A stretch of 64,000 bases of DNA, taken from the NCBI GenBank assembly GCA_023247795.1, contig JAHFFT010000004.1, forward strand, positions 9,739-73,738. Reading direction: 5' to 3'. The translations under genes were made by a program, and so were the position numbers. This document shows, piece after piece, positions 4,663 through 62,762 of this stretch. The notes under the pieces were generated by a model. The model saw only the letters and a list, made by a program, of their open reading frames with translations. It did not search any database and was not told where the DNA came from. The stretch is from Candidatus Omnitrophota bacterium (GTDB taxonomy: Bacteria > Omnitrophota > Gorgyraeia > Zapsychrales > JANLHA01). Within the stretch, counting starts at the first letter, position 1. Every line of letters starts with the position of its first letter.

Positions 4663-4668
4663 AAATGC

Positions 4669-4913: not shown

Positions 4914-4931
4914 TTCAACCCCCGGGGTTGG
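4914..4931. repeat. Palindrome TTCAACCCCCGGGGTTGG immediately 3' of the rodA stop codon.
   Basis: Perfect dyad. The same motif recurs at 41686 and three times at 49521-49567. Here it would encode TNPRG* directly after the rodA stop. Confidence 0.7.
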
Positions 4932-4932
4932 T

Positions 4933-6039
4933 TTAAAAAATCGTCCGTCGTTTGCTCAGGTTTAATAAAAAACCGATCATCAGGACAAAAATGAGAAACG
5001 AGGTCCGACCGTAACTCACTAAAGGCAACGTGATTCCAACCACCGGACATAACCCTAAAACCATTCCAATGTTGATCGCCACCTGCAGGGTCAAAATACC
5101 AACGATCCCGATCGTCACCTGGGTGCCGAATTTGTCTTTGACCTGCTCGGCAATGATGAAGCCGCAGGTGATGAGCATAGCATAACACGCCAAGAGAAAA
5201 ATCGTTCCCATCAACCCCCATTCCTCTCCAATCACCGAAAAAATGAAGTCGGTATGGCGCTCCGGCAAAAAATTGAGTTGGTTCTGCGTTCCCGCCAGCC
5301 ACCCCTTACCGAACAACAACCCTGAACCTATGGCAATCTTGGATTGGATGATCGTATATCCCGCCCCCAAGGGATCGATATTGGGATTCAAAAAAACCAA
5401 AAGCCGGTCCCGCTGATACGACTTCAAAATATGCCAAGCAAAAGGAACAAGGCACAAACAAACTCCCAGAAAAAAAAGGTAATGACGATAGTGAAGGCCG
5501 CTGACAAAAAGCATAATGAGAAAAATCCCAAACATCAAAATGGCGGTCCCCAAATCCGGTTGTTTGAAGATGAGCAGCATCGGCAGCAAAGTGATCAAGA
5601 GCGGAAAAAATAAATCCCTCCATAAACGCTGCGTCAAGGTTAAAAAACTGAAAGAGATCTTTGAAATGTTCTCGCTGAAATACCGGCCCAGAGCAAAAAT
5701 CAATCCCAACTTGGCCAATTCCGACGGCTGAAAACTTAAGGGACCTAAATTGATCCATCGCTGCGCTCCCAAGGCGTGACGGCCGACGACCATGACCAAC
5801 AACAGCAAAAAGACGCATCCGCCGTAAAAAAAATAGGAAAGGTCAAAAAATTTTCGATAATCAATCTGACTCAACAACTGGATGAAAACAAGGCCGACGA
5901 TCGCAAAGACCAATTGACTCGTAAATACGGTGTCAGAAACCCGTGGGTTATGATAAGAGGCGCTATAAACCGCCAAAAGCCCCATACCAATGATCAAAAT
6001 GGTCGTGATCCAGATGAAAAAAGCCAAATGCCGGCGCAT
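4933..6039 (-). CDS. rodA: Rod shape-determining protein RodA (SEDS family).
   Basis: 368 aa with ten TM segments, and it lies downstream of PBP2 with an ATGA stop/start overlap. Confidence 0.85.
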   Translation of the reverse strand: MRRHLAFFIWITTILIIGMGLLAVYSASYHNPRVSDTVFTSQLVFAIVGLVFIQLLSQIDYRKFFDLSYFFYGGCVFLLLLVMVVGRHALGAQRWINLGPLSFQPSELAKLGLIFALGRYFSENISKISFSFLTLTQRLWRDLFFPLLITLLPMLLIFKQPDLGTAILMFGIFLIMLFVSGLHYRHYLFFLGVCLCLVPFAWHILKSYQRDRLLVFLNPNIDPLGAGYTIIQSKIAIGSGLLFGKGWLAGTQNQLNFLPERHTDFIFSVIGEEWGLMGTIFLLACYAMLITCGFIIAEQVKDKFGTQVTIGIVGILTLQVAINIGMVLGLCPVVGITLPLVSYGRTSFLIFVLMIGFLLNLSKRRTIF

Positions 6040-7754
6040 CAGATGATCTCCTCTTTACGCATCTCCTGAAGCAAATACCGCGACAACATCGCCGCGTGAT
6101 AACTGGAACCACCGTATTCCAAAAAAACACAAAACGCGATTTTTTGTTTGCCGCTCAAATCATATCCGACAAACCAGGCGTGATGTTTCCGCTGCGAATT
6201 GCTTTGCGCGGTCCCGGTCTTGCCAAAAACCTCAAAACCATCCATATTGAGTATCCCGGCGGTCCCTTCGGGATCCTGCACCACCGATCTTAAACCACTG
6301 TGGACAAGATCAAAATATTTTTTGTCGATCCTGATGGATTTGATGCTGGATAAACGAACGACCTCTTGCTGACCAATTTTTTTGATCAAATGGGGCTGCA
6401 CAACTTCTCCCGACCGAGCAATGGTTGCCATCATGCGCAGCAACTGAATCGGTGTCACCAATAAATCCCCCTGCCCAATCGAAAAATTCAGGGTGTCACC
6501 GGTGTACCAGCCTCCTTGATTTTTCGACTGCCGCAAAGCCTTGCTGGGAACCAGGCCGGCGGCCTCAAACGGCAGATCGATCTTCGTCCGTTCTCCAAAT
6601 CCAAATAAACGGGCATATTTGTTGATGATGTCCGCGTCCAACTTTCTTCCTAACGTGTAGAAATAAACATTGCAGGAATGGGCAATGGCCTGCACCAGAT
6701 TTTCCACGCCATGAACATGAGCGCAAAGGAATTTCTGTTCTCCCAGCAGATAGTAACCGGGACATTGCGTTGTTGTTTGGCTGGAAATCGTGCCCGAGTC
6801 CAATCCGGCCATGGCCATCACGGCTTTAAAAACCGAGCCCGGCGGATACTGGCCCTTAACCGCGCGATCCAACATCGGTGCCGACGAGTCCGTCAAGATG
6901 CCTGGCGCCTGACTCCGCAGCTTCTGATCGCTAAAAACATTGGGGTTATAACTTGGCGAATTGACCAATCCCAAAATATCGCCGGTATCAAGATCCATGA
7001 CAATGATCGACCCCCGCTGCTCTCCTAAAATTTTTGCCGCGATCCGCTGAATATCGCCGTCGATGGTCAATTCCAGGTCTTCTCCCTTCTGCGATTCACG
7101 GACCCCTAATAAACGCACTTGTTGGCCGTGGTTATTGACTTCGATTTGCTGGCCGCCGGCCTGCCCCTGCAAATAGCGGTCATAATACGCCTCGACCCCA
7201 TCGTATCCGACCAAACTTTCCGGATTATAACCATACTCTTTAAGCTGATCTACCTTGGAGTTATCGATTTTACCGACGTAACCAAGCACGTGCGCGCCAG
7301 CCTGCTCGAATGGATAAAAACGACGAAAGGATTCTTGAATATACAGGCCGGGGAAACGGAATCGATTTTCCTCCAACAGCATCGCCACTTTTTTATCGAC
7401 GTCGTAAACGATCACAACCGGCGCGAACGCGGCGACTTTTCGCTGAAAAAAACGCTGAAGCAAATCACGTTTTTTTTCGTTGAGGGTCTCGGCCAAAAAG
7501 GCGAATAATTCCTCACTCTCCCGGATGTCTTGCGGGACCACCGCGACATCGTACGATAAACGATTATCAACTAAAGTGTCGCCATTACGGTCGCGGATCA
7601 CCCCGCGCTGCGCTTCCAAAGGAACGACCCGGATGTGATTATTAGCACTGAGATTATGAAAATAGGCTCCCCTAATGACCTGGACATAGAACAGATCAAG
7701 CGCGATCGAAATCAACAAAAATAAAGCGATTACGCGAACAATCTTGATACGCAT
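6039..7754 (-). CDS. mrdA: Penicillin-binding protein 2 (elongasome transpeptidase).
   Basis: N-terminal TM anchor, transpeptidase motifs SVFK, SCN and KTGTA, and position in the mreBCD-mrdA-rodA cluster. Confidence 0.9.
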   Translation of the reverse strand: MRIKIVRVIALFLLISIALDLFYVQVIRGAYFHNLSANNHIRVVPLEAQRGVIRDRNGDTLVDNRLSYDVAVVPQDIRESEELFAFLAETLNEKKRDLLQRFFQRKVAAFAPVVIVYDVDKKVAMLLEENRFRFPGLYIQESFRRFYPFEQAGAHVLGYVGKIDNSKVDQLKEYGYNPESLVGYDGVEAYYDRYLQGQAGGQQIEVNNHGQQVRLLGVRESQKGEDLELTIDGDIQRIAAKILGEQRGSIIVMDLDTGDILGLVNSPSYNPNVFSDQKLRSQAPGILTDSSAPMLDRAVKGQYPPGSVFKAVMAMAGLDSGTISSQTTTQCPGYYLLGEQKFLCAHVHGVENLVQAIAHSCNVYFYTLGRKLDADIINKYARLFGFGERTKIDLPFEAAGLVPSKALRQSKNQGGWYTGDTLNFSIGQGDLLVTPIQLLRMMATIARSGEVVQPHLIKKIGQQEVVRLSSIKSIRIDKKYFDLVHSGLRSVVQDPEGTAGILNMDGFEVFGKTGTAQSNSQRKHHAWFVGYDLSGKQKIAFCVFLEYGGSSYHAAMLSRYLLQEMRKEEII

Positions 7755-35066: not shown

Positions 35067-35094
35067 GGGGACAGACCCTAAAGGGTCAGTCCCC
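35067..35094. repeat. REP-like hairpin GGGGACAGACCCT-AA-AGGGTCAGTCCCC overlapping the trmH stop codon.
   Basis: 13-bp arms with one mismatch. The right arm encodes the C-terminal LGD* of the TrmH-like gene. Confidence 0.6.
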
Positions 35095-40523: not shown

Positions 40524-41627
<1,104 letters not shown>

Positions 41628-41685
41628 TTATTTTCTCTGCGCCGGGGCAACAGGGGACCACACCCCGGGAGTCCAACTCCCCATG

Positions 41686-41703
41686 TTCAACCCCGGGGGT
41701 TGG
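41686..41703. repeat. Palindrome TTCAACCCCGGGGGTTGG overlapping the fmt stop. It encodes the fmt C-terminal residues NPRG*.
   Basis: Same motif as 4914-4931. Confidence 0.7.
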
Positions 41704-42631
41704 TTAATACAGTACCCACGGATATTTTATGGCCGGCAATGAATGTCCTGATCTCCATTGGTTTTGCCGATTCCAGATGGACCTTTTTGATCAACAAGGC
41801 GCCGCGGCCGGCTTGGACAATCACCCCGCCCTCATTGACCTCAATGACCTCGCCGGCTTGTTTGCTCGTCGCTAGGCCTTTGCTCGTTTCCGTCTCTAAA
41901 ATCTTAAGCTGCCGGCCTTCCCAATACGTATAAGCCGAAGGCCACGGGACAAGGCCGCGGACCAGGTTATGGATCTGTGCGGCCGGTAACCGCCAATCAA
42001 TCAATCCCAGCTCTTTGGTTAACTTTGGGGCTAAGCTGACCTGACGATCATCTTGCTTCTTTCGTCGAACCTGCCCTTTTTCAAAAGCAGTTACCGCATC
42101 AAGCAGGATGTCTGCTCCCAATACAGCTAATTTTGTTCTCAACGTGACCGCGTTATCATTTTCTTGGATCGCGATACTCGACTGCGAAACAATATCCCCG
42201 GCATCCATCTGCTCGTTCATTTGGATCACCGTGACACCGGTTTCCTTTTCACCTTTTAGGATCGCCCAATTGATCGGTGCTGCCCCGCGATATTTTGGCA
42301 GTAAAGACGCGTGAACATTGATCGCTCCCAACCGCGGTATGCCCAAAATCCGGCCCGGCAAAATTTGGCCGTAAGCAATCACGATGAAAAGATCAGCTTG
42401 ATAAGACTGCAATTGTTTGGCCCATTTTGGTTCGCTGAAATCCGGCGGCTGCAAACAATCCATCCCCTGCTCTTGGGCCAAAACCTTAATCACGGACGCT
42501 GTTACTTTCAACCCACGGCCCTTGGGCCGATCCGGCTGAGTGACTGCGGCCACGATTTTCTGCCCTGAATCGATCAACTTTTTCAGACTGACCGCTGCAA
42601 AATCATCACTGCCGAAAAAAATGATTTTCAT
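41687..42631 (-). CDS. fmt: Methionyl-tRNA formyltransferase.
   Basis: N-terminal formyltransferase fold (…NVHASLLPKYRGAAPI…) plus a C-terminal tRNA-binding domain. Confidence 0.9.
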   Translation of the reverse strand: MKIIFFGSDDFAAVSLKKLIDSGQKIVAAVTQPDRPKGRGLKVTASVIKVLAQEQGMDCLQPPDFSEPKWAKQLQSYQADLFIVIAYGQILPGRILGIPRLGAINVHASLLPKYRGAAPINWAILKGEKETGVTVIQMNEQMDAGDIVSQSSIAIQENDNAVTLRTKLAVLGADILLDAVTAFEKGQVRRKKQDDRQVSLAPKLTKELGLIDWRLPAAQIHNLVRGLVPWPSAYTYWEGRQLKILETETSKGLATSKQAGEVIEVNEGGVIVQAGRGALLIKKVHLESAKPMEIRTFIAGHKISVGTVLTNPRG

Positions 42632-42656
42632 GTTCTCCTATCCATTCTCATCTAGT

Positions 42657-42688
42657 GTGGGGACAGTCCCTAAAGGGACGGTCCCCAC
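42657..42688. repeat. REP-like hairpin GTGGGGACAGTCCCT-AA-AGGGACGGTCCCCAC.
   Basis: 15-bp arms with one mismatch. Intergenic between the priA stop and the fmt start. Confidence 0.6.
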
Positions 42689-42695
42689 ACCACAT

Positions 42696-44461
42696 TTACG
42701 GATCCACGTTGATCGTAACGATAACACCTTTCTTATTTTTAAACCCACGAATAACCGGCCGGATCCGCTTGATCAACTTCTCCACGAACACGGTCTTTAA
42801 CATTATAGAAAACCGATACTGTTTACGCAACTTGAAGGAACCCACCGCTTGTGGATCAAAGATCTGTTCCTGCTTGGTCAAACATGAAGTTAACGCCGCG
42901 TATAGCTGATTGGCTAAATCAGCAACAACATCTTCTTTTTTTCCTCGAAGCTGGATAGAAATGAAATGTTGATATGGCGGAAATCCTAAGTTCCGACGGT
43001 GTTTCAATTCTTGTTGATAAAATCCCGCAAAATCCGCCTTCCCCACCGACGCCAACGTATATTCCTGGGGCTGATAAGTCTGGATCACCAACTTTTTCTG
43101 CGCCACCTGACGAAAATGCATGAGCAGACTGAAGACCCGATGCGCCGAATGGAAATCAAAACGATTGAGCTCTGAATCAATCGCCAACACGGCCAGCAGA
43201 CGCGGATGAATACGCCGCAAATGTTTCACAACCGCTTGTGTTGCCACAATCACATTGGCCTCTTCAGGAAACCGGGCAGATTCCTGATCAAACCTTGCCA
43301 CTCGCGCGTAAGGAAAAAATTTCTTCAAGTCGGCTTCGACCTTGACCACACTGGCCTGCCAATTCTGCAAACGCCGCTCCTGGTCAGAACCCGCAGCCGG
43401 TGGATAAAAATATTTGATTTGATCGTTACGGGTTTCTTCCCGCGGCCCCTTACGGTTAAAAAAAACCACCACCTTACCGTCGTTGGCCAACGCTTCTTCA
43501 ATGTGATTGATCATCGGGTAAGACAAATACGTTCCTTTTCGCGGTTTATAATTCGCCAGGTCAACGATCGTGGTATCAGCCCATTGCTTATTCAAAAAAA
43601 TCTCGACGCTAATTTTTTTCTTTTTAATTATCCCCCACAATTCAGGAGAAGGGCAGGGACTGACAAACACCACATCACATCCCTCGAATTTCTGACGCAT
43701 AAAAACCACGTCCCGGGTCTGATAGCGTGGAGATTGCTCCTGCTTGTAGGCACTGTTGTCTTCTTCATCCATAACAATCAACCCCAATTGATCGACAGGA
43801 GCAAAAACCGCGGAACGCGTCCCCACCACGACCCTTGATGTTCCGTTTTTGATGCTCGTCCACTGCACCAACTCTTCGCTGGGTTTCAACTTTCTATCAA
43901 TCACCGCGGCGATTACGGCGCACGCGCCTTCAATCATGGATTTGACACTTTCAATCAAATTCACTTCCGGGACCAAGACAATGACGCCCCGGCCTTGCGC
44001 CAAAGCATCTTTGATTTTTTTAAAACAACTGGCCAGCGCCCATCACCCTGCTGATCATGGCACAAAATGGTTTCTCCTTGCTGTTGGGGAACCGGATCAT
44101 CCCGACGAGCAGCAAAGTTTGAGACCGTTTTGCGTCGAAGGACCGCGGGCAGACTGCTTTCAATCGCCTCGCCCCAGGAGCAACCGTAATAATCACTGAA
44201 TGTTTTTGCCAAGGTGAGTTGTGTTGCAGATAGCGCCGGATCAAGTTCGTCGAGAAGTGCCAATACCGGCTTTAAATTTTTGATGGGACTTTGTTTCCGC
44301 AAACCGATCACGTAACCGATCGTTTTACGGAACGCAAACGAAACATAAACCCGCTGCCCTTCTTTGACTTTGTCTCGAAACGCTTCCGGCAAAAAATAAT
44401 CAAACGGCCCTTCGACCGGCAATCCAAGTACAACTTGGGCGATGCGATTGTTCATTTTCAA
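42696..44461 (-). pseudogene. priA: Primosomal protein N' (PriA) split into two ORFs by a -1 frameshift in a 7-nt homopolymer. It also has an atypical Walker A.
   Basis: The N-terminal ORF (44461→43961) ends …ETILCHDQQGDGRWPVVLKK|SKMLW…. Adding one T/A to the T7 run at 44016-44022 gives …VVLKKIKDALAQGRGVIVLVPEVNLIE…, continuous with the 42696..44003 ORF (helicase motif II MDEED, C-terminal Zn/CTD region). GDGRW replaces the canonical GSGKT. Confidence 0.75.
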
Positions 44462-44478
44462 ATGCGGGTTGAATTTGG

Positions 44479-45570
44479 TTAAGATGCTGTGACGAATGCT
44501 GCGATATCTCTGGCCGCATGCGGTTTAGCAAGAACAGCGATTTTTTCTTTAACGGCGGATAATTCGGATTGAGAGACCTGGTAGCGTCGCAGCACTTCTG
44601 CCATCTTATCTATCGGGACATCGCTCAGACCGACGCCATATTCTTTCAAAATTTGAACGTTGTGCTGTTCCTGGCCGGGAATGGCGCTAAAAAATATCAA
44701 GGGCAGTCCGCAGACCAGACCTTCGGAAATGGATAAACCACCCGGCTTGGTGATCATCGCGTCAGCGGCTTTCATCAGTTCGTCCATATTGTCGACCAAA
44801 CCCTGCACTTTGACAAGCTCTCTTTTCCAGCGGCCGAGCCGACGGTAAAGATTTTTGTTGTGTCCGCAGACCACGATGATCTGAAACCCGTCCAAGGCTT
44901 CAATCACCTCATCAATCGGGCCGATGCCGAAGGAACCCGTCGCTACCAGCACGGTAAAAACATCGGGCTGCAATCCCAGACGGCGGCGTAAGGCCGAAAC
45001 ATCGACCGATTCCGCGAAGCGATGGTCGGTCGGAATGCCGGTGACTTTGATCTGACCAGCCGCGACCCCCAGTAGCTGCAATTTTGTCTTTGTCCGGTCG
45101 CAAGCCACCGCGTAGAAATCGATCCCCTTTGACACCCAGATGCTGTGGACATCAAAATCGGTAATGACCGCTATGACTTGCGAATGGATTTTGTCGCTCC
45201 GTTTCAAATAAGAAGCCACTTCGTTGGGAAAAAAGTGGGCTGAATAAATTTGATCAAACTGCTCTTTGATCAAAAACTTGTGCAAACCAAAACCCATGAC
45301 GGAATTTTGCGTCCGTCGAAGGAACCTGACAACCGGCCCAAACCATTTTTGATCCAACAGTTCAAACACCACTTTCCAAATCCAAGGGAAATGAGAAATC
45401 ATCACCGTGTAGGAACCGCTGTAAAACGGTTTATACCCTTTGCAGGTATGGTCAAGCGCATCGACGATCCGGACATCATGGGACCCTTGTTTTTTGAGTT
45501 CGGCAAAAATGGCCTCAGCGGCTCGACGATGGCCGGCACCAGCGGTTGCGTGAATCACCAATATTTTCAT
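44479..45570 (-). CDS. MGDG-synthase-like / UgtP-type diacylglycerol glycosyltransferase (GT28).
   Basis: N-terminal MGDG_synth domain (…HATAGAGHRRAAEAI…) plus a C-terminal GT28_C domain. Confidence 0.75.
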   Translation of the reverse strand: MKILVIHATAGAGHRRAAEAIFAELKKQGSHDVRIVDALDHTCKGYKPFYSGSYTVMISHFPWIWKVVFELLDQKWFGPVVRFLRRTQNSVMGFGLHKFLIKEQFDQIYSAHFFPNEVASYLKRSDKIHSQVIAVITDFDVHSIWVSKGIDFYAVACDRTKTKLQLLGVAAGQIKVTGIPTDHRFAESVDVSALRRRLGLQPDVFTVLVATGSFGIGPIDEVIEALDGFQIIVVCGHNKNLYRRLGRWKRELVKVQGLVDNMDELMKAADAMITKPGGLSISEGLVCGLPLIFFSAIPGQEQHNVQILKEYGVGLSDVPIDKMAEVLRRYQVSQSELSAVKEKIAVLAKPHAARDIAAFVTAS

Positions 45571-46199
45571 TTTCGCTTCGCAAACTTTACGGGTTTTCTT
45601 GCGGTAAGAAGCGGACGGGACGTTTTTTTGCGAGGCGCCGGTTTACCGTTGCCATCGAGGATAACTTTGACGGCCTCCAAAAGGTCTTTGGTGATGGTGT
45701 CCGGATGGACTTTCCATTTTCGCATATACCGACGATCTTCGCGTCCAGAGAGAACAAAGATCGTCTTGCAACCGGCATTATGTCCGGCAAGGATGTCGGT
45801 CTCGGTATCACCGACAAAATAAGTTTTTCCAGCCGACCGTAAATTTTTATTCATCGACCGCAGGGCCTCACGAATAAAACCAATGCCTGGCTTACGGTAA
45901 TCGCAGTGTTGTCCGCCGCGGGCAATGGCATAATAAACCCGGTCGATCTTGCCGCCGGCCCTCTCCACTTCACGGAACATCTTGATCGTAATCTGGCTGA
46001 GTTTGTTCTGGCTGTAAACACCCTTCTCGATGCCAGCCTGATTGGAAATCACGACGATCTTGTAACCAGCCTGGGTCAAACGCTGGATGGCCTCGAGCGA
46101 GCCAGGGATGAAATGAAAATCCTTAGCACGGGTAACGTAATTGCCGTTTCCCGGGAATTTATTGATGACACCATCGCGATCTAGGAAGACTAATTTCAT
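45567..46199 (-). CDS. gmhB: HAD-IIIA phosphatase (D,D-heptose-1,7-bisphosphate phosphatase GmhB-like) with a basic C-terminal tail.
   Basis: The MKLVFLDRDGVIN motif and …GDTETD…. Confidence 0.75.
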   Translation of the reverse strand: MKLVFLDRDGVINKFPGNGNYVTRAKDFHFIPGSLEAIQRLTQAGYKIVVISNQAGIEKGVYSQNKLSQITIKMFREVERAGGKIDRVYYAIARGGQHCDYRKPGIGFIREALRSMNKNLRSAGKTYFVGDTETDILAGHNAGCKTIFVLSGREDRRYMRKWKVHPDTITKDLLEAVKVILDGNGKPAPRKKTSRPLLTARKPVKFAKRK

Positions 46200-46333
46200 T
46201 GCCTTTCTCTAAAATCAAACGCTGTCAAGCTTTTTTTATGGACGTGGGGTCAGCGAGGAATTGCGCTCAAACCCGTATAAGTATAATTGAAAAACAATGG
46301 CGGGATCAATGGAAATAGGAAGTTTTTTCAAAT

Positions 46334-46366
46334 CTGGGGGACAGCCCCTGAAGGGGCCGTTCCCAG
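46334..46366. repeat. REP-like hairpin CTGGGGGACAGCCCCT-GA-AGGGGCCGTTCCCAG.
   Basis: Imperfect member of the GGGGAC-N-GTCCCC family; intergenic. Confidence 0.5.
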
Positions 46367-46383
46367 TCTTTCGATCTTACTTT

Positions 46384-47487
46384 TTACACCAACTCGGCCA
46401 GCGTTTGACAAACATAATCCACTTGTTCCTGGCTCATGTGCGGGAACATCGGCAATGATAAAACCTCTTCACAAAGCTGTTCGGCAAACGGCAAATCGCC
46501 TTTTTTGTATCCAGCGTCGATGTAAGCCTCTTGCAGATGCAGCGCGATTGGGTAATGGATGAGAACGTCGATCCCGCGCTTTTTCATTTCTTCCATGATC
46601 TTGTCGCGTTTCTTAAGCCGCACGGCAAAGGTCTGGAAGACATGGCTGCGATCAGATTTGATTTTCGGCAGGCCCACCTTACCTTGCAGTTTTCCTAATC
46701 CTTTGAAGTACCGCTCAGCGACTTTATTGCGTAGGCAGTTCCATTCATCCAGATATTTCAACTTCTCGGCGAGGACCACGGCTTGCACGGTATCCAAACG
46801 CGAATTATATCCCTTGATCGAATGTTCATACCGGTTCTTCCGGCCATAATCGCGCAGCATGGTCACTTTTTCAAAAATCTTCTGATCATTGGTCACGACC
46901 ATTCCCCCGTCGCCAAATCCGCCCAGGCTCTTCGTCGGATAAAAACTAAAGCAACCGACCTGCCCCAACGACCCGGCCTTTTTCCCTTGATACGTGGCCC
47001 CATGCGCCTGACAGGCATCTTCGATGACCGCAATGTTTCGTTTCGCGGCCAGCGCGTTGATTTCCTTCATATTCGCGGCTTGACCATAAATATGGACGGG
47101 GATGATCGCTTTCGTCTTACTGGTAATGGCTTTCTTTACACCGTCAGGATCCAGATTATACGTTTCCGGTTCACTGTCCACAAACACCGGCTTAGCTCCG
47201 GTATAAGAAACACAAAGCGCTGTGGCGATGAACGTAAACGTCGGCAAAATCACTTCGTCGCCGGGCTTGATGTCTAAAGCCGACACCGCCAGATATAGCG
47301 CGTCAGTTCCGGAGTTAACGCCCACTCCATGCTTACAACCGCAATAGCGGGCAAAATCCTTTTCAAAATCCTGGGCCTCTTCTCCAAGAATAAAATTGCC
47401 CTTTTCAAAAACGGCATTGAGACCTTTATGCATTTCGGTCTTGATGGTCTCGTATTGGGGACGAAAGTCAATGAACGGAACTTTCAT
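46384..47487 (-). CDS. DegT/DnrJ/EryC1/StrS-family PLP-dependent sugar aminotransferase.
   Basis: 367 aa with an AAT fold-I (…GVNSGTDALYLA…, …YPTKSLG… Lys region). Confidence 0.85.
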   Translation of the reverse strand: MKVPFIDFRPQYETIKTEMHKGLNAVFEKGNFILGEEAQDFEKDFARYCGCKHGVGVNSGTDALYLAVSALDIKPGDEVILPTFTFIATALCVSYTGAKPVFVDSEPETYNLDPDGVKKAITSKTKAIIPVHIYGQAANMKEINALAAKRNIAVIEDACQAHGATYQGKKAGSLGQVGCFSFYPTKSLGGFGDGGMVVTNDQKIFEKVTMLRDYGRKNRYEHSIKGYNSRLDTVQAVVLAEKLKYLDEWNCLRNKVAERYFKGLGKLQGKVGLPKIKSDRSHVFQTFAVRLKKRDKIMEEMKKRGIDVLIHYPIALHLQEAYIDAGYKKGDLPFAEQLCEEVLSLPMFPHMSQEQVDYVCQTLAELV

Positions 47488-47518
47488 GAAAAACCAACCT
47501 TTCTTTAATAGTTACATG

Positions 47519-47586
47519 TCTCCAGTCTCAAGTGACAAGTAACTTGTGACATGGAACTTAAGACTTGTCACTTGAAACTGGAGACT
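47519..47586. repeat. Inverted repeat with 21-bp arms (CTCCAGTCTCAAGTGACAAGT / ACTTGTCACTTGAAACTGGAG, one mismatch) containing three ACTTGT(C/G)AC-type half-sites.
   Basis: It spans the GT9 stop codon and the GT9-to-aminotransferase intergenic spacer. Confidence 0.55.
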
Positions 47587-48646
47587 GCAATATTTGCTCC
47601 ACTTTTTCCAAAACATCTTTCACTTCGATGTTCTTTAAACAACTGATGTGATCACAGCTCGCCCGACGAAAATGACGGTAACACGGCCGGCAGGCAATAT
47701 TGCTGGTAACCACCGCGTGTCCTTCCGGCGGATACGGACCGTACACCTGCTCGGGAACGGGTCCGAAGATCGAAACGGTTTTGGTGCCGACAGCGGCCGC
47801 CATATGCAGCGGCCCGCCGTCATTGGTGATGACCAAATCACAGCGCTCTAAAATGGCCGCAGTCTGCAGCAAAGAATTTTCCGCGCAAACCGCGGCCGGC
47901 CGATGGGCCATTCTATCAGAAACCCCTTGCAGCAGTTTTTTTTCCTTCTCACTGCCCATCAAAAAAATCCGGGCATGGTATTTTTCAATCAATTGATCAA
48001 CGAGCTGAGAAAATTTCTCCGGTGCCCAGCGTTTATACAAAGCATCATGACCCCAACTCGCCCCGCCCGCCGGGAAAACAGCCATCGCCAGCTCCCCGCG
48101 CCCAACACCATGTTTGATCAAAAAACTTTCCGCCCAATCCTGGTCCTGTTTCGCCAAAGGCAATTTCATCTGCCTGGTTTGGATCGGAACGGCGAGTTCC
48201 CGCAAAAGATCAAGATAGCAATCGACGACGTGCTTTTTCTCGTAGCCAAAGAACGAAATTTTCTTTGTCAAAAAACGGCCGCGATTACGAAAATCAAATC
48301 CCACTCGCCGCGGGATGCCTGCCCCAAAAGACAAAAAACCCATAAAGCCATTGAGCGAAAGATCCATCACCAAATCGTAATGTTCCCTTTTGATGTCCTG
48401 AACCAAATTAAAAATCTTTTGCAAATACTGGAACTTTGATTTTTGTTGTATGGACTGCCATTCGTCGCGTTCATAAACATGAACCTTATGTAAAGATGGA
48501 TGTCGCTCGAGGAATTGGGCCGCGCGGCGATTCGCCAAATAACCGATTTGGATTTTTGGCGAATGCGCTTTCAAATTCTCAATCAACGGGGTCGTAAAGA
48601 GAACATCGCCGATACCATAAATATTGATGATAAGAACTTTTTCCAT
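47558..48646 (-). CDS. Glycosyltransferase family 9 (heptosyltransferase-like).
   Basis: N-terminal …INIYGIGDVLFTTPLI… and a C-terminal GT-B half, as in RfaC/RfaF. Confidence 0.8.
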   Translation of the reverse strand: MEKVLIINIYGIGDVLFTTPLIENLKAHSPKIQIGYLANRRAAQFLERHPSLHKVHVYERDEWQSIQQKSKFQYLQKIFNLVQDIKREHYDLVMDLSLNGFMGFLSFGAGIPRRVGFDFRNRGRFLTKKISFFGYEKKHVVDCYLDLLRELAVPIQTRQMKLPLAKQDQDWAESFLIKHGVGRGELAMAVFPAGGASWGHDALYKRWAPEKFSQLVDQLIEKYHARIFLMGSEKEKKLLQGVSDRMAHRPAAVCAENSLLQTAAILERCDLVITNDGGPLHMAAAVGTKTVSIFGPVPEQVYGPYPPEGHAVVTSNIACRPCYRHFRRASCDHISCLKNIEVKDVLEKVEQILQSPVSSDKS

Positions 48647-48656
48647 CCCAACCTTT

Positions 48657-49499
48657 TCATTGAACCGCTGTTTTACCGCGCTTAGAAGTTTTATAGCGAA
48701 CCCTTAACCACTTGAATGGATGATACCAAAATTTGCCATTGATCAGCCGCCAATCGGCCTGACTGAGCTCGTGCTGGGCAACGCGTTCTTCCATGACCTT
48801 GGGATGCGTTCCCAAATACGCCGGGAATCGATTGAGATCGCCGTAAGAATATTTTTCTATTCGCTCTTCCGAGCGGAGTGTGGCAAAACCGATATTTTCG
48901 GCATTGACCCGACGCTGCGTCATGATCTCTTCTGGATGCACCCAGCCGTAATGATACAAAAGACAACTCGTGGCCCGATGTCGCAACCGCTGTTGGTCTT
49001 TGCGTCGGAACCCCGCGGCGTCACCGCAAGACTCCACTTGCCCGCTATTTTTAACAATCCGTTCGCTCTTTTGAAACCATCCGTAATCGATCCGATAACG
49101 GTAATAACTTCCATAAAAATGCAGCCAACGCAGCCGTAAGGCATCCACTTGATCGTCGTGAAGATATTTGCGCATGCAGTTTAAAAGCGGCCGATGGTCT
49201 TTTTCGTGAATGACTTCATCCGACTGCAGATAAAACGCCCAATCGCCAGAGCATTCGGCCAAGGCCCGATTGGTTTCATCGGCCAAGACCGTTGCCCCAA
49301 AATTCATGTCCCAAACGGATTGGATGATCCGGATTTTGGGGTCACGCAAGGTCTTGAGCAATGCCATCGTCCCATCTTCTGAATCCCCGACGTTGATGAT
49401 GAATTCGTCACAGATCGGTAGAATCGACTGGATTGATTCTAAAATGGGGTAATTGTATTTGATCACATTGCGGGCAATGGTGAATCCGCTGATTTTCAT
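48657..49499 (-). CDS. Glycosyltransferase family 2-like protein.
   Basis: MKISGFTIARN… with DxD-type …VGDSEDGT…. The track start at 49538 is a TTG inside a palindrome; ATG at 49499 is preferred. Confidence 0.65.
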   Translation of the reverse strand: MKISGFTIARNVIKYNYPILESIQSILPICDEFIINVGDSEDGTMALLKTLRDPKIRIIQSVWDMNFGATVLADETNRALAECSGDWAFYLQSDEVIHEKDHRPLLNCMRKYLHDDQVDALRLRWLHFYGSYYRYRIDYGWFQKSERIVKNSGQVESCGDAAGFRRKDQQRLRHRATSCLLYHYGWVHPEEIMTQRRVNAENIGFATLRSEERIEKYSYGDLNRFPAYLGTHPKVMEERVAQHELSQADWRLINGKFWYHPFKWLRVRYKTSKRGKTAVQ

Positions 49500-49520
49500 A
49501 TCATGAAATGTGCTTTTCCA

Positions 49521-49567
49521 CGCACCCCCGGGGTTCAACTCCCGGGGTTAAACCCCGGGGGTGTGCG
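49521..49567. repeat. Triple copy of the CCCGGGG palindrome: CGCACCCCCGGGGTTCAACTCCCGGGGTTAAACCCCGGGGGTGTGCG.
   Basis: It overlaps the GT4 stop (encoding …TPGV*) and is the same motif family as 4914 and 41686. Confidence 0.7.
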
Positions 49568-50681
49568 TTGAGGATTTGAATAAATCTTGATAAACACCCA
49601 ACGTCTCTATCGCGGTCTTCGTGAACGAAAAATCCTGAGCGCGTTTGAGCGCTTTTTTCTGCAAGCCGACTTTCAGCTCCCTATTCTCGATAACATTCGT
49701 TATCGCCTGGGCGATTTTATCCGGATCATAAGGATCGACTGTTAAAGCCCCGTCGGCGGCGATTTCCGGACAGGAGGAAACATTCGATGTCACCACCGCG
49801 GCCCCGCAGCAAAACGCCTCAATGATTGGAAACCCAAATCCCTCATAAAACGACGGAAAAACAAAACACTCGGCCAAATTGTAACAGCGGCGCAAATCGT
49901 CGTCCGAGACGAACCCCGGAAAAATCACACTGTCCTGCAAATATAAATTTTTAACCGCCTCGTCCATCCCTTCCAACATCCAACCCTTCATGCCGGCCAC
50001 GACAAGCTTACCTTTGAATTTTCCATCTTCTTTCAAAATCGAAAAAGCCAACAAAAGATTTTTTAAGTTCTTGCGCGGTTCTATCGTCCCGACAAACAAA
50101 AGGAAAGGCGGTTCAATGCCTTTTTTCTTTAAGCTCGTCCTTCCCTTTTCAAGCGCTTCGCCCTCAAGAGGGAAAAAAGTGGTTTTATCAACCCCTTGGT
50201 ACACCATCTTGACCCGCTGTTGATCAACCGGAAAAAAATGGTTAAGGTCCTTCAACGTGCTTTGCGAACAGCAAATGATCTGATCGGCGCGCTCAACCAC
50301 CGCCTGCATCTGTTTTTCCGTCGTGTCAATGGTCTGCTGAGTGTGTCCCTGTGGATAGGTCCGATAAACCAAGTCGTGCACGGTAACAACAACCTTGGCC
50401 TTGTTGATATGGATCATGTCTGGTGATGGGGAATGGTAAATGTCAACCGTTTGCAACGTTTGGTCAATGCCTTGACCGAGCCAATCGATCTTCACCAAAA
50501 AATTTTTAGCGTCAAAATGCGGGACATGACGTTTGAAATCGAAATATTTCTTCTGAGCGTAAAGCCAATATTCATTTTGCTGATCCAATTCACTCAAAGA
50601 CTTGACCAAATTATACGCGTACCGGCCGATCCCGGCGTAATTCAACTTTAAAAATGAACGGCAATTGATCGCGATGCGCAT
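49548..50681 (-). CDS. Glycosyltransferase family 4 (GT-B, Glycos_transf_1).
   Basis: …FVGTIEPRKN… and …FPSFYEGFGFPIIEA… (EX7E motif). Confidence 0.85.
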   Translation of the reverse strand: MRIAINCRSFLKLNYAGIGRYAYNLVKSLSELDQQNEYWLYAQKKYFDFKRHVPHFDAKNFLVKIDWLGQGIDQTLQTVDIYHSPSPDMIHINKAKVVVTVHDLVYRTYPQGHTQQTIDTTEKQMQAVVERADQIICCSQSTLKDLNHFFPVDQQRVKMVYQGVDKTTFFPLEGEALEKGRTSLKKKGIEPPFLLFVGTIEPRKNLKNLLLAFSILKEDGKFKGKLVVAGMKGWMLEGMDEAVKNLYLQDSVIFPGFVSDDDLRRCYNLAECFVFPSFYEGFGFPIIEAFCCGAAVVTSNVSSCPEIAADGALTVDPYDPDKIAQAITNVIENRELKVGLQKKALKRAQDFSFTKTAIETLGVYQDLFKSSTHTPGV

Positions 50682-56966: not shown

Positions 56967-59900
56967 TTAAAAATTCAATTGGGCCCTCAAGGACACATCG
57001 AGCGAACGCTCGTCATGCCCATTTCCAAGCAAGGTATCAATAGCTAAAAGCTTATCCGCCTGTCCGCCGATCTGAAACTGACAACTGTTTTTAAAATAAG
57101 TGCTTTGGGTGATATCATTCAAAAAAATAGCGCTGGTCAAACGGACTTTCTTGTTCAAGTTAGCTCCAACTGAGACATATTTCTCAACGGTCTCTCGGAT
57201 GCCAGCATTGTCCCAGCTAGACAATCCGGTAGAAATATCGAATCGATGTGCCCCAACCTGGCGCTCAATGCTTGTTCCGATGATATCGGTCAAGTTGTCT
57301 AAATTCTGCTCCCAGAAAAATCGTGATTGAAAACCCAAAAATTTGCTTTCTGAAAAATATTTTAAAAATTGAAAATCCCCGAACTCTTTTCCTTCCATCT
57401 CAAGACCCAATTTGAAATTTTTCAATAGCGTGACGCTAGGGCGCAAGGCGATAAGTTCATTGATGTCCTTGCCTATCTCGAGCTGGACATCCTGACCGAA
57501 AGGATCGAGATGAATGCCAGAACGGACATCGGTCGCGTAATTTATGGGCTTATAAAAATCCAATGGGCCCTTCAGCCCATCAATCCCTTGGAATTCAACT
57601 TCAAATTCATGATTCACCAACCCTAAGGGGACATAGGGCATCAAATCCACGTCGGTATACCAAAATTCGCCCGGAGATTTGACCGATCCCCCAAGAATGA
57701 TCCCGGGGATCACAACGCTATTATCCTCCTCTTTAAAACTGCCTTCATAACCAATTTCCGTTTTCCGAAAGGGAACAAAATCCTTTTCCGCGGCCGTTAG
57801 GTTAAGGTCTTGCCCCAATGTGTTTTTTTTACGAACATCGTAACTCAAAAGCGATGGATTGAATTGATTGACAGAAAAAGGGGACTGATAACCGTCCCGC
57901 ACGCTCAATAACATGTCGTCATAAAATCGGTAGGCGTAGGCCAATCCTTTGATTTGCACATCAAAACTGCTGGAATCAAAAAGACGGTCTTTGAAATACG
58001 CGTAATACCGATCCGCGGGCGATGTCATATTGAGCGCGGTACGGGAATATTTATCCAAGACCGGGACATTGACGTCAATGATTCCGCTGTCATAACCCAA
58101 AAAGAGATTTTCCGCCCCCAAAATTCGCCGGGAAGAAGATTCATTAAACTGGACCTGAGATGGGGCCCATAAATGATCAACGCCTGAGAAGCTGTTCGAG
58201 GCTGTACTAGGTTCAAGGATGGACATCCCCATATCGTACAACAGCACCCGTTCTTTCTGCTGCAACGCGTCTTCTAAGTTCCGATCCAACATCCCCTCAA
58301 GAAACAGATAAAGCTGCTGCGAATCATCGGCGTTGATGATACGAATAAGGTCTTCATCGGTCAGACTGAATTCACCAACATCCCAAGCCAATGACAATAG
58401 AAGATTGTTCCATTTGGGATCGCTGAATTTGAGTCGTCCTTTGGCCAGTTCGCGAGGATTAAAATCAATCTCTTCCAAAACAGAACGGATCGCGTCGTCC
58501 CGCGCGGCGATCGTAAAATCAAATTCGCCATTCTTGATCTGATCAACATCTTCTTGAACAATCTGCTTGATATCGTCGAGCGGGGCCGTATGGACCTTCA
58601 TGATATAGCTCTGATCGGTGTTCAAGCTCAAGACATTCGCGAGTTGATCAAAACGCAGATTCGTATGATCGAGATTCAACGCAAAGAAATCGTTCTTATA
58701 ATTCGCGATGTTAATGGGCATCGTGTTATTTCGGGGAGCGTCCATCTGCAAATGCAGCCGGTTGTCATTGGAATCAAATTTGACATATCCATCGCGGGAG
58801 ATATCAAGCACCAGACGATAACCATTCATCTCAGCATGAAAAGCCCGCTCTTGGCTGTCGAATGCCAGGTGATTCTCATCCGCCGTGCCCCAATGAAAAT
58901 CAAAATCCAAATCAGCGCCAAACTCTCTTTCGAGAACATCAAGGGCCCCGTTCAGATCCCCGTGGATGAAATCATTGATTTCAGAATTATCCAATAAAAT
59001 CTTTTCTCCATCGGATTTGGTCAACAACAATTCTCTTTGCGTTTCTCCATTGACCGACTGCTCATGATAAGAAAACTCTTTTTCGTTCATCTTGCCATAG
59101 ACCTTAAACAACCCTTTACCTTTCTCAAAGAAGAGCGATCCGTTCAATTCCTCGCCGAACAAGGTCAGATATCCCTGCAGCATTTCTTTATCGTGTTGGA
59201 TCTTTTCAAATTGGAATTGCTGATTATCCCATATAGTCCCGGCTCCTTTAAGAACGTCACCGTATTTTTCCAAAGAAAATTGCGCGATGTCCTTATCCAG
59301 CAAACTCGTCTGCAATACAAAACTTTTTTTGTTGGCAATAGGATCAAAATCCTTCTTTAAAGTAAGAAGTCCTTTGCCCAAATCTAATAAATGTCCTGAG
59401 TCAATGCCTGAAGATAAAGCTTCCCCTTGGCTGGGCAGCGCGGGATGCCCCTCGCTGTCTGACGTCCACGGCTCATCGATCTTCAGCATTCCTTTGGATG
59501 GAATAATTCCAGCCGAAACTTCTTCCATCCCCGTTCGAAAAAAGGAGGCGTCGAGATATTGGGACAAACTTTGAAGATGGTCTGCCCAGCCTCCTATCCC
59601 TTGATCCATCATTGTGTCGAAAGACTCTTTGATTGAAGTTTGATCCGGCAAGACAATGGATAGGTTCACCGACGGCCGAGCGTCATCAATCATCGACAGG
59701 AACTGCTGGCTCTCGAAACCTTTGAATAAACTTTTGGGATTGAAAGAAATGGCGTCGAGCTTTCGAGTTGCCTTATTGTAACGATAGGCCAATACCTGAT
59801 CATTCTGATAACGCCCATAATAAATCTTGTCGTCGCTAAAAATATTGATCTGCCTTTGCTCACGCCCGCGGCTGTAAATCCCTGTCAAGAACGGAGCGTC

Positions 59901-61595
59901 CTCGCGAGTCAAAAACAACGCGGATAGACCGCTGCGCAGAGAAATGGCATCGAGCTTGCCATGCGGGGTTGCTAAAGCAATGCTGCGGCCATTGTCATTC
60001 TTAATAAAATTGATAAAATCCTTCCTCCCGGTTTCTCTATTGGCATAGCTTGCCCCGTACCGACTGGATTGAGCAAATGCTGAAATGCCTTCCGACGAAG
60101 AATTGATGGAAACGGTCCCCTCGTGGTCTTTATATGCGAGGTTTAGATTTTTATAAGCTTGCTCGCCGCGGTCATACTGGCTCAAATAAAAATGATTTTC
60201 ATCCAAACTCGCGTATAGATATTTAGCATAAGTCCCCAAGCTCAAATGGCTTTGCCCGCCGGAATTCCCGCCGGTCAGGTATTGATATTGTCCACTCTTC
60301 CGGTCGTGATGTGCCAGATACACGTTCCCCTTCTGATAGGCTCCATAGAGTGTGTCCTTCAAGAATGAAGAACTGGCGGTCATCCGACCCTGGTTCTGAT
60401 AAAAATTGAAAAATTTAAAACTTTTATAATCTTTGTCCGTCACATAACCCAATAAAGAATTTTGATCCTGCCGCAAATAAAATCGCTCGTTCTCCCCGTC
60501 AGCACTGATCTGTGTCCGCGCACCATCATGACGAACGTCGACATCCATAAACACATCATTGATTTTCTGAAGACCCGCATCAACTTTTAACAAAGGATTT
60601 TGCAAGGCCCCTTCGGCTAACGTTGGTATCTCAATCGTTTGCTCCCATTGTTTGTTGTCATAATAATATTTTGGCAACTCTTCGATTTTGTCCGTTATCT
60701 TGTCCCTGTAAAATTCGAGCGACCCCAAATCTTCATAGAGAATTGATTTTGGCAAAAGGGACGTATGAGATCCAACACTCCAATGATCCAATATATCTCG
60801 CGCTTTGTGCCCATCGTCAAAAACATTTTTTTTATAGTGGTTTAAAATATCCTCCTTTTCTCCAATATCAACATCCCCGAGATATGATCTGATTTTCTTT
60901 TCCTGCGAGGTCACAGTCTCTGACAAAAGACCCAATTCTTCTACATCATATTTCCGTAAAAGAGCTCGACGGAAGCCGGGTCGTGAAATATGACCGAACT
61001 TCCTATCGAGTATTGAAAAGCGCGATTTCGCCGAAGAGACCAGAGATTTTACGTCCAGCGGAGTTTCAACGAGGTCCTTCTTACCAGTGACTTGACTGAG
61101 GAAGCGCGGGGTTTTTTGGTAAAAACGAGTGAGATCGATCTTGCCAAGAATAGTATTTTCATCTGTCGACATGGAAAAAAAATCTTTCCCTTGCTCTACC
61201 ATATGCTTAACATTTACGGATGGATCTTTCTGTTCAGCCTGAACGCTTTCCTGATCTTCGGAAGTTTCCACTCTAGCTTTTTCATGAAGCACGGTCTGCA
61301 GGATCCAATAATCGGTCTTTTCCAAAATAAAATCAACCTTAGGTTGGTTCTTTTTCGATGTGGCCTGACCAGAAATCTCCCCATTCGATGTGGTGGCCTG
61401 CCAATATAAATCCCGATCCTGAGACCAAACATTGAGATCGTAATGATGGCCGGCAGAGGCTGGTAAACCGTGAACGGTGATGGAGAGATTGTCAGTGTTG
61501 CCAGAGGCATACGCCGAATGGGCTTGCGGCGCGCATAATAGCAAACCGAAAATATACCAGAAAAAAAAATTTCGTAAAAAAAGCATCCCATTCAT
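56967..61595 (-). CDS. Giant secreted protein (1542 aa) of unknown function with an OMP-like C-terminus.
   Basis: Signal peptide MNGMLFLRNFFFWYIFGLLLCAPQAHSAYA. Aromatic-rich beta-type composition throughout. The C-terminus is …SLDVSLRAQLNF (terminal Phe, alternating hydrophobic residues). There are no recognisable enzymatic motifs. Confidence 0.6.
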   Translation of the reverse strand: MNGMLFLRNFFFWYIFGLLLCAPQAHSAYASGNTDNLSITVHGLPASAGHHYDLNVWSQDRDLYWQATTSNGEISGQATSKKNQPKVDFILEKTDYWILQTVLHEKARVETSEDQESVQAEQKDPSVNVKHMVEQGKDFFSMSTDENTILGKIDLTRFYQKTPRFLSQVTGKKDLVETPLDVKSLVSSAKSRFSILDRKFGHISRPGFRRALLRKYDVEELGLLSETVTSQEKKIRSYLGDVDIGEKEDILNHYKKNVFDDGHKARDILDHWSVGSHTSLLPKSILYEDLGSLEFYRDKITDKIEELPKYYYDNKQWEQTIEIPTLAEGALQNPLLKVDAGLQKINDVFMDVDVRHDGARTQISADGENERFYLRQDQNSLLGYVTDKDYKSFKFFNFYQNQGRMTASSSFLKDTLYGAYQKGNVYLAHHDRKSGQYQYLTGGNSGGQSHLSLGTYAKYLYASLDENHFYLSQYDRGEQAYKNLNLAYKDHEGTVSINSSSEGISAFAQSSRYGASYANRETGRKDFINFIKNDNGRSIALATPHGKLDAISLRSGLSALFLTREDAPFLTGIYSRGREQRQINIFSDDKIYYGRYQNDQVLAYRYNKATRKLDAISFNPKSLFKGFESQQFLSMIDDARPSVNLSIVLPDQTSIKESFDTMMDQGIGGWADHLQSLSQYLDASFFRTGMEEVSAGIIPSKGMLKIDEPWTSDSEGHPALPSQGEALSSGIDSGHLLDLGKGLLTLKKDFDPIANKKSFVLQTSLLDKDIAQFSLEKYGDVLKGAGTIWDNQQFQFEKIQHDKEMLQGYLTLFGEELNGSLFFEKGKGLFKVYGKMNEKEFSYHEQSVNGETQRELLLTKSDGEKILLDNSEINDFIHGDLNGALDVLEREFGADLDFDFHWGTADENHLAFDSQERAFHAEMNGYRLVLDISRDGYVKFDSNDNRLHLQMDAPRNNTMPINIANYKNDFFALNLDHTNLRFDQLANVLSLNTDQSYIMKVHTAPLDDIKQIVQEDVDQIKNGEFDFTIAARDDAIRSVLEEIDFNPRELAKGRLKFSDPKWNNLLLSLAWDVGEFSLTDEDLIRIINADDSQQLYLFLEGMLDRNLEDALQQKERVLLYDMGMSILEPSTASNSFSGVDHLWAPSQVQFNESSSRRILGAENLFLGYDSGIIDVNVPVLDKYSRTALNMTSPADRYYAYFKDRLFDSSSFDVQIKGLAYAYRFYDDMLLSVRDGYQSPFSVNQFNPSLLSYDVRKKNTLGQDLNLTAAEKDFVPFRKTEIGYEGSFKEEDNSVVIPGIILGGSVKSPGEFWYTDVDLMPYVPLGLVNHEFEVEFQGIDGLKGPLDFYKPINYATDVRSGIHLDPFGQDVQLEIGKDINELIALRPSVTLLKNFKLGLEMEGKEFGDFQFLKYFSESKFLGFQSRFFWEQNLDNLTDIIGTSIERQVGAHRFDISTGLSSWDNAGIRETVEKYVSVGANLNKKVRLTSAIFLNDITQSTYFKNSCQFQIGGQADKLLAIDTLLGNGHDERSLDVSLRAQLNF

Positions 61596-61800: not shown

Positions 61801-61812
61801 GGGGACTGTCCC
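61801..61812. repeat. REP-like palindrome GGGGACTGTCCC abutting the epimerase stop codon.
   Basis: GGGAC-T-GTCCC is a perfect dyad; the stop TAG (61812-14) shares its last nucleotide. Confidence 0.5.
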
Positions 61813-62762
61813 TAAATATTTGTCAATGCCGTGTGCAAGGAGCGCTCTCGACCAAGGACGGTAAAGGCCTTGATCAATTCCTCAATTCCTGCGGCTAAGG
61901 AAACTCGCGGTTTGAAACCGGCCTTTTCAATCTTTGCGTTGCTGACAATGTAATCGCGTTGGTCCGGGTCTTTGCCGGTCTTGGACTCACGGATCTCTAA
62001 ATCAGGGACAAATTTTTTGATCTGCTGACATAACTCAAGCTTGCTTAAGTTGGCGTCGCTCAACCCCACATTGTAAGCCTGATCTTTCATCTTTTTAAAA
62101 TTCTTCAACCCCAAAAGGAAGGCAGCGGAAATGTCCCGCACATGGATGTAATTGCGCATGAAATGCGCCTCAAACAATTCAATTCGTTTTTCAAACAGCG
62201 CCCGATAGGTAAAATCATTGACCAACAAATCCAAACGCATGCGCGGACTGACACCAAAGACCGTTGCCAATCTTAAGGTGATGCTCCCGCCCGCCTGCAA
62301 AAGCAACTCTTCCGCCTGCACCTTAAGCCGGCCGTAAAGTGAGACCGGTCGTAAGGGGGTGTCCTCAGTACAAAATTTCCCCTTTTCTCCGACTCCATAA
62401 CCACTGTTGGTCGTCGGATAAATGATGATTTGCTGCTTTGATCGTAGCTTGAGGATCAATTGCACAGCATCAATAATAACGCTTTTAGCTTTTTGGGGGT
62501 CTTTATCGCACAATGGGGCCCCGGTCAGACAGGCCAGAGGAAAAATAGCGTCGACATTTCTAAGCAAAGGGGCTAAAACTTTTGCATCACCAGCATCACC
62601 GCGAATGATGCGTAGACGCTGATCATGACAGCAATCCAAAAGCGAATTTTGCTGATACATGAAATTATCAAGCACCGTGACCTCATGCCCCGCTTGCAAT
62701 AACGTTGGTGTTAGGACCGCACCTATGTATCCAGCCCCACCGGTGATTAAGATTTTCATCAT
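61812..62762 (-). CDS. NAD-dependent epimerase/dehydratase (extended SDR).
   Basis: ILITGGAGYIG Rossmann motif and the YxxxK catalytic dyad. Confidence 0.8.
   Translation of the reverse strand: MMKILITGGAGYIGAVLTPTLLQAGHEVTVLDNFMYQQNSLLDCCHDQRLRIIRGDAGDAKVLAPLLRNVDAIFPLACLTGAPLCDKDPQKAKSVIIDAVQLILKLRSKQQIIIYPTTNSGYGVGEKGKFCTEDTPLRPVSLYGRLKVQAEELLLQAGGSITLRLATVFGVSPRMRLDLLVNDFTYRALFEKRIELFEAHFMRNYIHVRDISAAFLLGLKNFKKMKDQAYNVGLSDANLSKLELCQQIKKFVPDLEIRESKTGKDPDQRDYIVSNAKIEKAGFKPRVSLAAGIEELIKAFTVLGRERSLHTALTNI

Follow-up and report, generated by a model that had tools for sequence, protein, structure and literature searches.

Can a primosomal protein N' (PriA) that has lost the lysine and threonine of its Walker A motif, and whose reading frame is broken by one missing base, still be a gene product under selection, and do the two defects have anything to do with each other? 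The question is posed by priA in a 64,000-nucleotide stretch of contig JAHFFT010000004.1 from a Candidatus Omnitrophota bacterium, the whole of which we refer to as the window. The gene lies on the minus strand, as do its parts described below, at 42696-44455 and is 1760 nt long, one base short of the intact gene. We consider it likely that it is the orthologous priA of this bacterium, that it encodes a pseudohelicase shared by a clade, and that the split is a separate and trivial matter of a homopolymer.

Identity and helicase motifs of the Omnitrophota PriA

As it stands in the window, the gene is read as two open reading frames (ORFs) that overlap in different frames. The N-terminal ORF (43961-44461; 166 amino acids from a TTG, or 164 from the ATG at 44455) encodes the 3' DNA-binding domain (3'BD), a linker and a degenerate motif I and continues past a run of seven A residues for 19 out-of-frame codons before it reaches a stop, while what remains of RecA-like lobe 1 is encoded, together with lobe 2 and the PriA C-terminal domain, by the C-terminal ORF (42696-44003, 435 amino acids). 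The matching proteins P0123 (164 amino acids, from the ATG) and P0122 (413 amino acids, included in the C-terminal ORF) are found on one 92,223-bp NCBI contig, which is presumably the source of the window. Insertion of one A gives a continuous 586-residue PriA that reads ...VVLKKIKDALAQGRG... / ...GDGRWPVVLKKIKDALAQGRG... across the junction; an earlier note on this DNA had proposed both that a frameshift in a 7-nt homopolymer splits the gene and that a single inserted A would restore continuity with the 435-residue ORF, and both proposals are borne out. The predicted repaired protein is identical to P0121, which an exact-sequence look-up found encoded by one uninterrupted ORF in ENA ERZ27297570.

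Several comparisons identify the repaired protein as a PriA. Its 3'BD (residues 7-103, 44147-44437) matches the whole of PF17764 (1-96 of 96, E 1.7e-21), is modeled at a predicted local distance difference test score (pLDDT) of ~90, and was matched to the isolated 3'BD structure 2d7e in a phmmer search of PDB chains, in which PriA was the only family matched (E 2.6e-43). The PriA C-terminal domain (residues 494-586, 42699-42977) likewise matches PF18074 over its full length (1-95 of 95, E 1.8e-11), and the DEAD-box match is only weak. The protein passes the priA model TIGR00595 (274.9 bits vs a cutoff of 230.35) and falls far under the cutoffs of the full-length NCBIfam PriA equivalog models (PRK05580), e.g. 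318 vs 813 bits. An AlphaFold2 model built with 41 family members as input (pLDDT 86.4, predicted template-modeling score 0.86) has disorder limited to residues 337-367 (pLDDT <50), and its best Foldseek matches in the PDB are PriA 8fak_H (query-normalized template-modeling score, TMq, 0.83; E 2e-42) and winged-helix-deleted E. coli PriA 6dcr (TMq 0.81), with Mfd as the first non-PriA match at TMq 0.42. The predicted fold of the repaired protein is that of PriA, with two RecA-like lobes of the superfamily 2 helicase type.

At the site of motif I (Walker A), the protein reads HDQQGDGRWP (44030-44059), with R140 at the place of the catalytic lysine and W141 at that of the threonine. The phmmer search aligned QGDGRWPVVL of the query to TGSGKTEVYL of Klebsiella pneumoniae PriA 4nl4, and GDGRW was likewise aligned to GVTGSGKT of five canonical PriAs, which were taken from other genomes and aligned with the family as a reference set. 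The placement of GDGRW at the Walker A site in the earlier note thus holds against both, GDGRW being homologous to Walker A, and the change of lysine and threonine to arginine and tryptophan predicts, as had been suggested, a protein unable to hydrolyze ATP in the normal way.

This is a property of a clade and not of one gene. We took a census of 121 sequences, comprising the 120 listed best matches and P0121; the matches share 36-46% identity with the query except for P0001 at 96%, and those that are named come from Omnitrophota/Omnitrophica. GxxxxGK[ST] occurs at the Walker A site in none of the 121, which instead follow the consensus h-L-h-H-D-x5-R-W-P-f, with H in 98, D in 106, R at the lysine position in 83, and W at the threonine position in 115. 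A P-loop displaced to another part of the protein was also looked for, and none is conserved in the protein or the family, the six sporadic matches in the 121 proteins lying at differing positions.

DEED, the motif II (Walker B) counterpart of canonical DEEH (43758-43769), stands in register in the window protein, as the earlier note had pointed out; across the family its first Asp is retained in only ~50% of members, and the consensus is iYeEEN. Alignment with canonical PriAs identifies ATQAV (43230-43244) as the remnant of motif V (canonical GTQMxAKG) and FRQVAQKK (43092-43115) as that of motif VI (canonical QVAGRAGRGxxPG), in which the arginine finger is lost with a deletion of five residues and for which the family consensus is rLRQlA (hLRQxA). 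The Q-motif segment 'LTxxQxxA' that precedes motif I in the five canonical PriAs is absent from the family. These losses, that of the cysteine-rich region (CRR) described below, and the clade-wide scope had escaped the earlier note, which was to that extent incomplete.

Conservation is strong elsewhere. The lobe-1 motif GTRSAVFAP (43797-43823) is kept in canonical and pseudo forms alike, with per-column conservation of 79-100% across the family and the same residues in canonical PriAs, and strong conservation extends to YKQEQSPxY, DxELNRxDFRS, FPP, the 3'BD, and the C-terminal domain. This pattern indicates a protein selected for something other than catalysis. A close relative, assembly GCA_023247815.1 (L001), has 94% DNA and 96% protein identity and carries priA as a single 586-residue ORF (P0001); compared with it by the Nei-Gojobori method, the repaired window gene has a ratio of nonsynonymous to synonymous substitution rates (dN/dS) of 0.105 overall at a dS of 0.20, which is purifying selection. 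Because the replacement residues and the non-catalytic motifs are conserved and dN/dS is this low, the gene appears functional and not decaying, and the loss of Walker A is, as far as sequence comparison can tell, real, ancient, and selected.

A further loss affects the zinc-binding CRR. Four CxxC pairs are present in 115 of the 121 family proteins, and not one is found in the window protein, P0001, P0011, P0059, or P0102. In the window protein, the remnant of the region (residues 337-373, 43338-43448) contains no cysteine and is predicted to be disordered, with a vestige, IKYFY, that aligns to LSYLY of the CRR. The CRR-less proteins form three groups (the window protein with P0001; P0011; P0059 with P0102), and because the nearest neighbors of each group carry the CRR and the linkers left behind are of unequal length (35, 27, and 18 residues), the alignment suggests that the CRR was lost repeatedly, at least three times, within this P-loop-less Omnitrophota clade. 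The E. coli CRR links ATPase with helicase activity and makes contact with PriB (PMC5778457). Loss of the CRR following loss of the ATPase would be sensible in a lineage that apparently lacks PriB.

The locus places these losses inside the phylum. The gene order gmhB, a glycosyltransferase similar to monogalactosyldiacylglycerol synthase, priA, and fmt is common to the window, L001, and the loci L003-L006, all with the pseudo form. The order glycosyltransferase - priA - fmt is also found in an Omnitrophota metagenome-assembled genome (MAG), isolate nzgw325 (L015:4001-6004, JAHFGX010000001.1), where PriA is fully canonical (GVTGSGKT, DEEH, GTQMVAKG, QVAGRAGR, and four CxxC). L015 and the canonical references come from a scan of genome contigs with the family alignment, in which 80 loci were kept of at least 600 stretches; most of the 80 are canonical PriAs of other phyla, mainly Acidobacteriota, with five Omnitrophota-type loci among them and the genome of the window itself absent, and priA-fmt adjacency is seen too in loci of Dormibacteria, Spirochaetia, and Firmicutes. 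Because nzgw325 retains the canonical form in this glycosyltransferase - priA - fmt order, the pseudohelicase is, to judge from gene order and motifs, a descendant of a canonical priA at the ancestral locus, with the loss lying inside the phylum. Loss of the ATPase motifs is therefore not phylum-wide and could be dated on a tree.

The split at the A7 tract

The A7 homopolymer at which the base is missing lies at 44015-44021 (T7 on the plus strand), one base from the position 44016-44022 given before, and is in phase as A_AAA_AAA. P0121 is encoded on a 7,381-bp contig of the independent assembly ERZ27297570 whose Fmt and glycosyltransferase proteins are identical to those of the window, and priA there, at 4425-6185, measures 1761 nt. 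L001 has eight positions at the site (AAATAAAA; in context TTTTAAATAAAATC in L001 vs TTTTAAAAAAATC in the window), and all 120 listed homologues are single ORFs. On either side of the break, dN/dS stays low (0.083 upstream, 0.116 downstream), and the gene shows no second lesion. No further split gene was found in the 64 kb, although it contains 71 A/T runs of at least 7 nt; of 14 candidate homopolymer junctions, those inspected lie between neighboring distinct genes, such as TetR / alginate-export porin, response regulator / histidine kinase, DksA, and others. Because the same population holds an intact allele that encodes an identical protein and the 96% relative is intact, the split is not fixed. 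The break is likely an assembly or sequencing error or else a slippage allele that is not fixed and is probably recent or minor, and we infer that it is a contraction by 1 nt of an A8 tract that reads A7 in the window. Neither an old pseudogene nor a conserved programmed frameshift describes the split. Of the three origins that had been offered for it, error is favored, if it is widened to include a non-fixed allele, over pseudogene and slippage-dependent gene by the intact allele, the intact 96% relative, and the dN/dS values on the two sides (0.08 and 0.12).

Could the seven A residues nevertheless be real in this strain, with priA a very recent pseudogene or a segregating knock-out allele caught before further decay? 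The record itself shows A7, and homopolymers are hot spots of slippage. Sequencing indels would also be rare if the data came from Illumina reads assembled with metaSPAdes, as in the presumed project of L001, a link that we infer (PMC8862662). Contigs assembled by Logan from SRR14366766 match the window at 100% identity to either side of the site (L083 = 44148-48965 and L002 = 40571-43382), both stop before the A-run, and the gap between them at 43383-44147 includes the site, a break that is weak and non-specific as a pointer to a variant. The same population, however, holds the intact allele with an identical protein, dN/dS downstream of the break is that of a gene under constraint, secondary lesions are absent, every listed homologue is uninterrupted, and loss of priA is severely deleterious in model bacteria (PMC5778457). 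We therefore regard a real knock-out as unlikely. The hallmarks of a pseudogene (relaxed selection, extra lesions, and want of an intact allele) are not seen in priA.

Some observations do weigh against so simple an account of the break. The A8 in ERZ27297570 is deduced from gene length and the identical protein, which A6-G-A would fit too; an Illumina/metaSPAdes source for the MAG, if that is what it had, would make homopolymer errors uncommon and a real variant plausible; and an artefact and a genuine segregating allele may both remain compatible with the break. A scan of JGI metagenomes for the tract site, with A7 or A8 allowed, gave no match.

The sequence around the tract also invites the idea that the split is bridged in expression, by -1 ribosomal frameshifting on A_AAA_AAA with a hairpin or by slippage in transcription of the A-run. 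The phase of the heptamer is right, and -1 slippage would give exactly ...KKIKDAL...; beyond a 5-nt spacer, beginning 6 nt 3' of the A-run, lies a predicted 11-bp RNA hairpin, GAUGCUUUGGC-GCAAG-GCCGGGGCGUC (43983-44009), with a 90-nt fold of -30.4 kcal/mol and a z-score of -2.55. In these respects the site is like the -1 sites of dnaX and insertion sequences (A_AAA_AAG or A_AAA_AAA with a hairpin). It is unlike them in that the frameshift is not conserved, the ORF being contiguous in the same-population allele, the 96% relative, and the 120 listed homologues, and in that no Shine-Dalgarno-like stimulator was found 6-17 nt upstream of the A-run; a scan of the window at Rfam gathering thresholds gave no match either. 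Moreover, the same hairpin stem is present in L001, whose ORF needs no frameshift, and the hairpin is therefore no evidence of programmed frameshifting. Bridging is very improbable on this evidence, and equally improbable is its elaboration, in which a genuine A7 and -1 slippage would yield a free 164-residue 3'-end-binding module along with a full-length, ATPase-dead PriA scaffold. If slippage did occur, a replication-restart gene would make two products much as dnaX does.

That the two ORFs encode two functional polypeptides was considered and rejected. In E. coli PriA, a split at residue 154/157, between domains, is tolerated (PMC5778457). The break in the window falls inside helix alpha-1 of lobe 1, and translation of the downstream piece could begin only at a TTG or at a late ATG, with no ribosome-binding site evident by eye. 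We conclude that an error or a non-fixed slippage allele is the best account of the priA frameshift, which is a mere caution on single-base homopolymer differences in MAGs.

Replication restart and known PriA systems

The Omnitrophota protein has kept the 3'BD, both RecA-like lobes, now as a scaffold, and the PriA C-terminal domain, and it has given up the Q-motif segment, the P-loop (GxGKT to HD-x5-RW), motif V, the arginine finger of motif VI and, in the window's lineage, also the CRR. In our model, abandoned forks would be recognized through the 3'BD together with inert lobe surfaces, and reloading of the replicative helicase (DnaB) would be nucleated through protein contacts, without ATP hydrolysis or unwinding of duplex; the conserved Trp and the His-Asp pair may steady the former nucleotide cleft. 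The model is drawn by analogy with Deinococcus radiodurans PriA, which is without ATPase or helicase activity and binds single-stranded DNA, forks, and DnaB (PMC4504706), and with E. coli priA300 (K230R), an ATPase-dead allele that behaves almost as wild type in vivo and is restart-active in vitro (PMC5778457). These precedents also bear on the remark in the earlier note that a non-canonical PriA would be unusual for replication restart; unusual it is, and not incompatible with restart.

An alternative view is that the clade's PriA-like protein has been neofunctionalized into a fork- or DNA-binding protein that is no restart factor, with restart proceeding by another route. The loss of all ATPase motifs, and in several lineages of the CRR, could be read in this way, as could the new conserved HD...RW motif and the low scores with the full-length equivalog models. 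Yet the protein sits at the ancestral priA locus beside fmt, its best conserved parts are the fork- and partner-binding modules (3'BD and C-terminal domain), the Deinococcus precedent retains binding of forks and DnaB, and ATPase-dead E. coli PriA supports restart. We regard this alternative as improbable, and as less so than bridging of the split.

A restart-competent pseudohelicase nevertheless has to face several difficulties. The loss of ATP binding and hydrolysis is a prediction made from sequence only; synteny and the 64-kb window, in which priA is the one PriA-like gene, are the basis for taking it as the sole copy; and, since the PriB interaction and primosome assembly are lost when the CRR of E. 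coli PriA is mutated (PMC5778457), a CRR-less PriA may by analogy work differently or poorly.

Comparison with known systems shows how far the erosion has gone. With canonical PriA (E. coli and K. pneumoniae; 4nl4, 6dgd, and 8fak; TIGR00595), the window protein shares the 3'BD, two lobes, C-terminal domain, predicted fold (TMq 0.79-0.83), the GTRSAVFAP and YKQ motifs, and the position beside fmt; in contrast to it, the protein is without the winged-helix domain, Q-motif segment, P-loop, motifs V/VI, and CRR, and measures 586 residues vs ~730. The PriA pseudohelicase of Deinococcus-Thermus (Lopper et al. 2015, PMC4504706) is alike in having degenerate Walker A/B motifs across a lineage and Arg in place of the catalytic Lys, and by analogy fork binding without ATPase activity would be expected of the Omnitrophota protein. 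The latter is more degenerate, however: the P-loop has lost its glycine scaffold, Thr has become a near-invariant Trp, motifs V/VI and the Q-motif region are lost, and the CRR has gone repeatedly. That the named relatives are Omnitrophota and that the nzgw325 locus has a canonical gene implies an origin separate from Deinococcus-Thermus. Finally, priA300 carries the same P-loop Lys-to-Arg change and demonstrates that restart is possible without PriA ATPase or helicase activity (PMC5778457); it is a single engineered change in an otherwise intact helicase with PriB and DnaT, in contrast to the Omnitrophota protein, in which the whole catalytic apparatus has been eroded naturally.

A 2017 review describes PriA helicase activity as conserved 'except in Deinococcus' (PMC5778457). 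PriA pseudohelicases are thus already known, but only from Deinococcus-Thermus, and the Omnitrophota case appears to be undescribed in the phylum; in the library searched, we found no paper linking Omnitrophota or Omnitrophica with PriA or 'primosomal', and nothing relevant on other PriAs with a degenerate Walker A.

Surroundings of the gene and significance

Upstream of priA, on the minus strand at 46384-50681 and in L001:1-4069, lies a run of lipopolysaccharide-core/glycan genes that is conserved among the window's relatives and comprises a gmhB-like HAD phosphatase, a DegT-type aminotransferase, a Glyco_transf_9 heptosyltransferase, and GT2 and GT4 enzymes. In the spacer between priA and fmt, the window has a 43-nt insertion relative to L001 (42648-42690) that forms an almost perfect palindrome, GTGTGGGGACCGTCCCTTTAGGGACTGTCCCCACAC. 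With at most one mismatch allowed, 10 copies of the palindrome core, GGGGACNGTCCC, are present in the window, vs 0.6 expected, including at 21518, 35067-35094, 46337, and 61801-61813, and the listed positions appear intergenic; the palindrome looks like a small dispersed element, putatively of the repetitive extragenic palindrome type or a terminator hairpin. Farther away, the pair 20079/20425 was considered as a split gene and found to be two genes, the second of which has an internal ATG start, a ribosome-binding site, and a signal peptide. It encodes a small predicted secreted protein (20079 to ~20430, minus strand) that begins with the signal-peptide-like MNRKLIVKIIICLIVVMG..., has no Pfam match, and contains three tandem cysteine-rich repeats of ~33 amino acids (SCGIKPIPxIGCRxGRCVDGYWEQICDSSPTL); its gene and the stop of the ORF before it overlap by ~11 nt, which is not a frameshift. 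Near the 3' end of the window, a very long ORF (56967-61595, minus strand) encodes 1542 amino acids, and Omnitrophota are reported, in the titles of papers, to encode unusually long proteins.

For PriA itself, the finding means that a large and diverse Omnitrophota clade represents an independent and more radical loss of the helicase, with an HD...RW motif in place of the P-loop, and the automatic label 'replication restart helicase' is probably wrong for these proteins. The clade bears on how PriA reloads DnaB in bacteria without PriB and DnaT, and it provides a natural experiment on what the helicase activity and the CRR of PriA are needed for.

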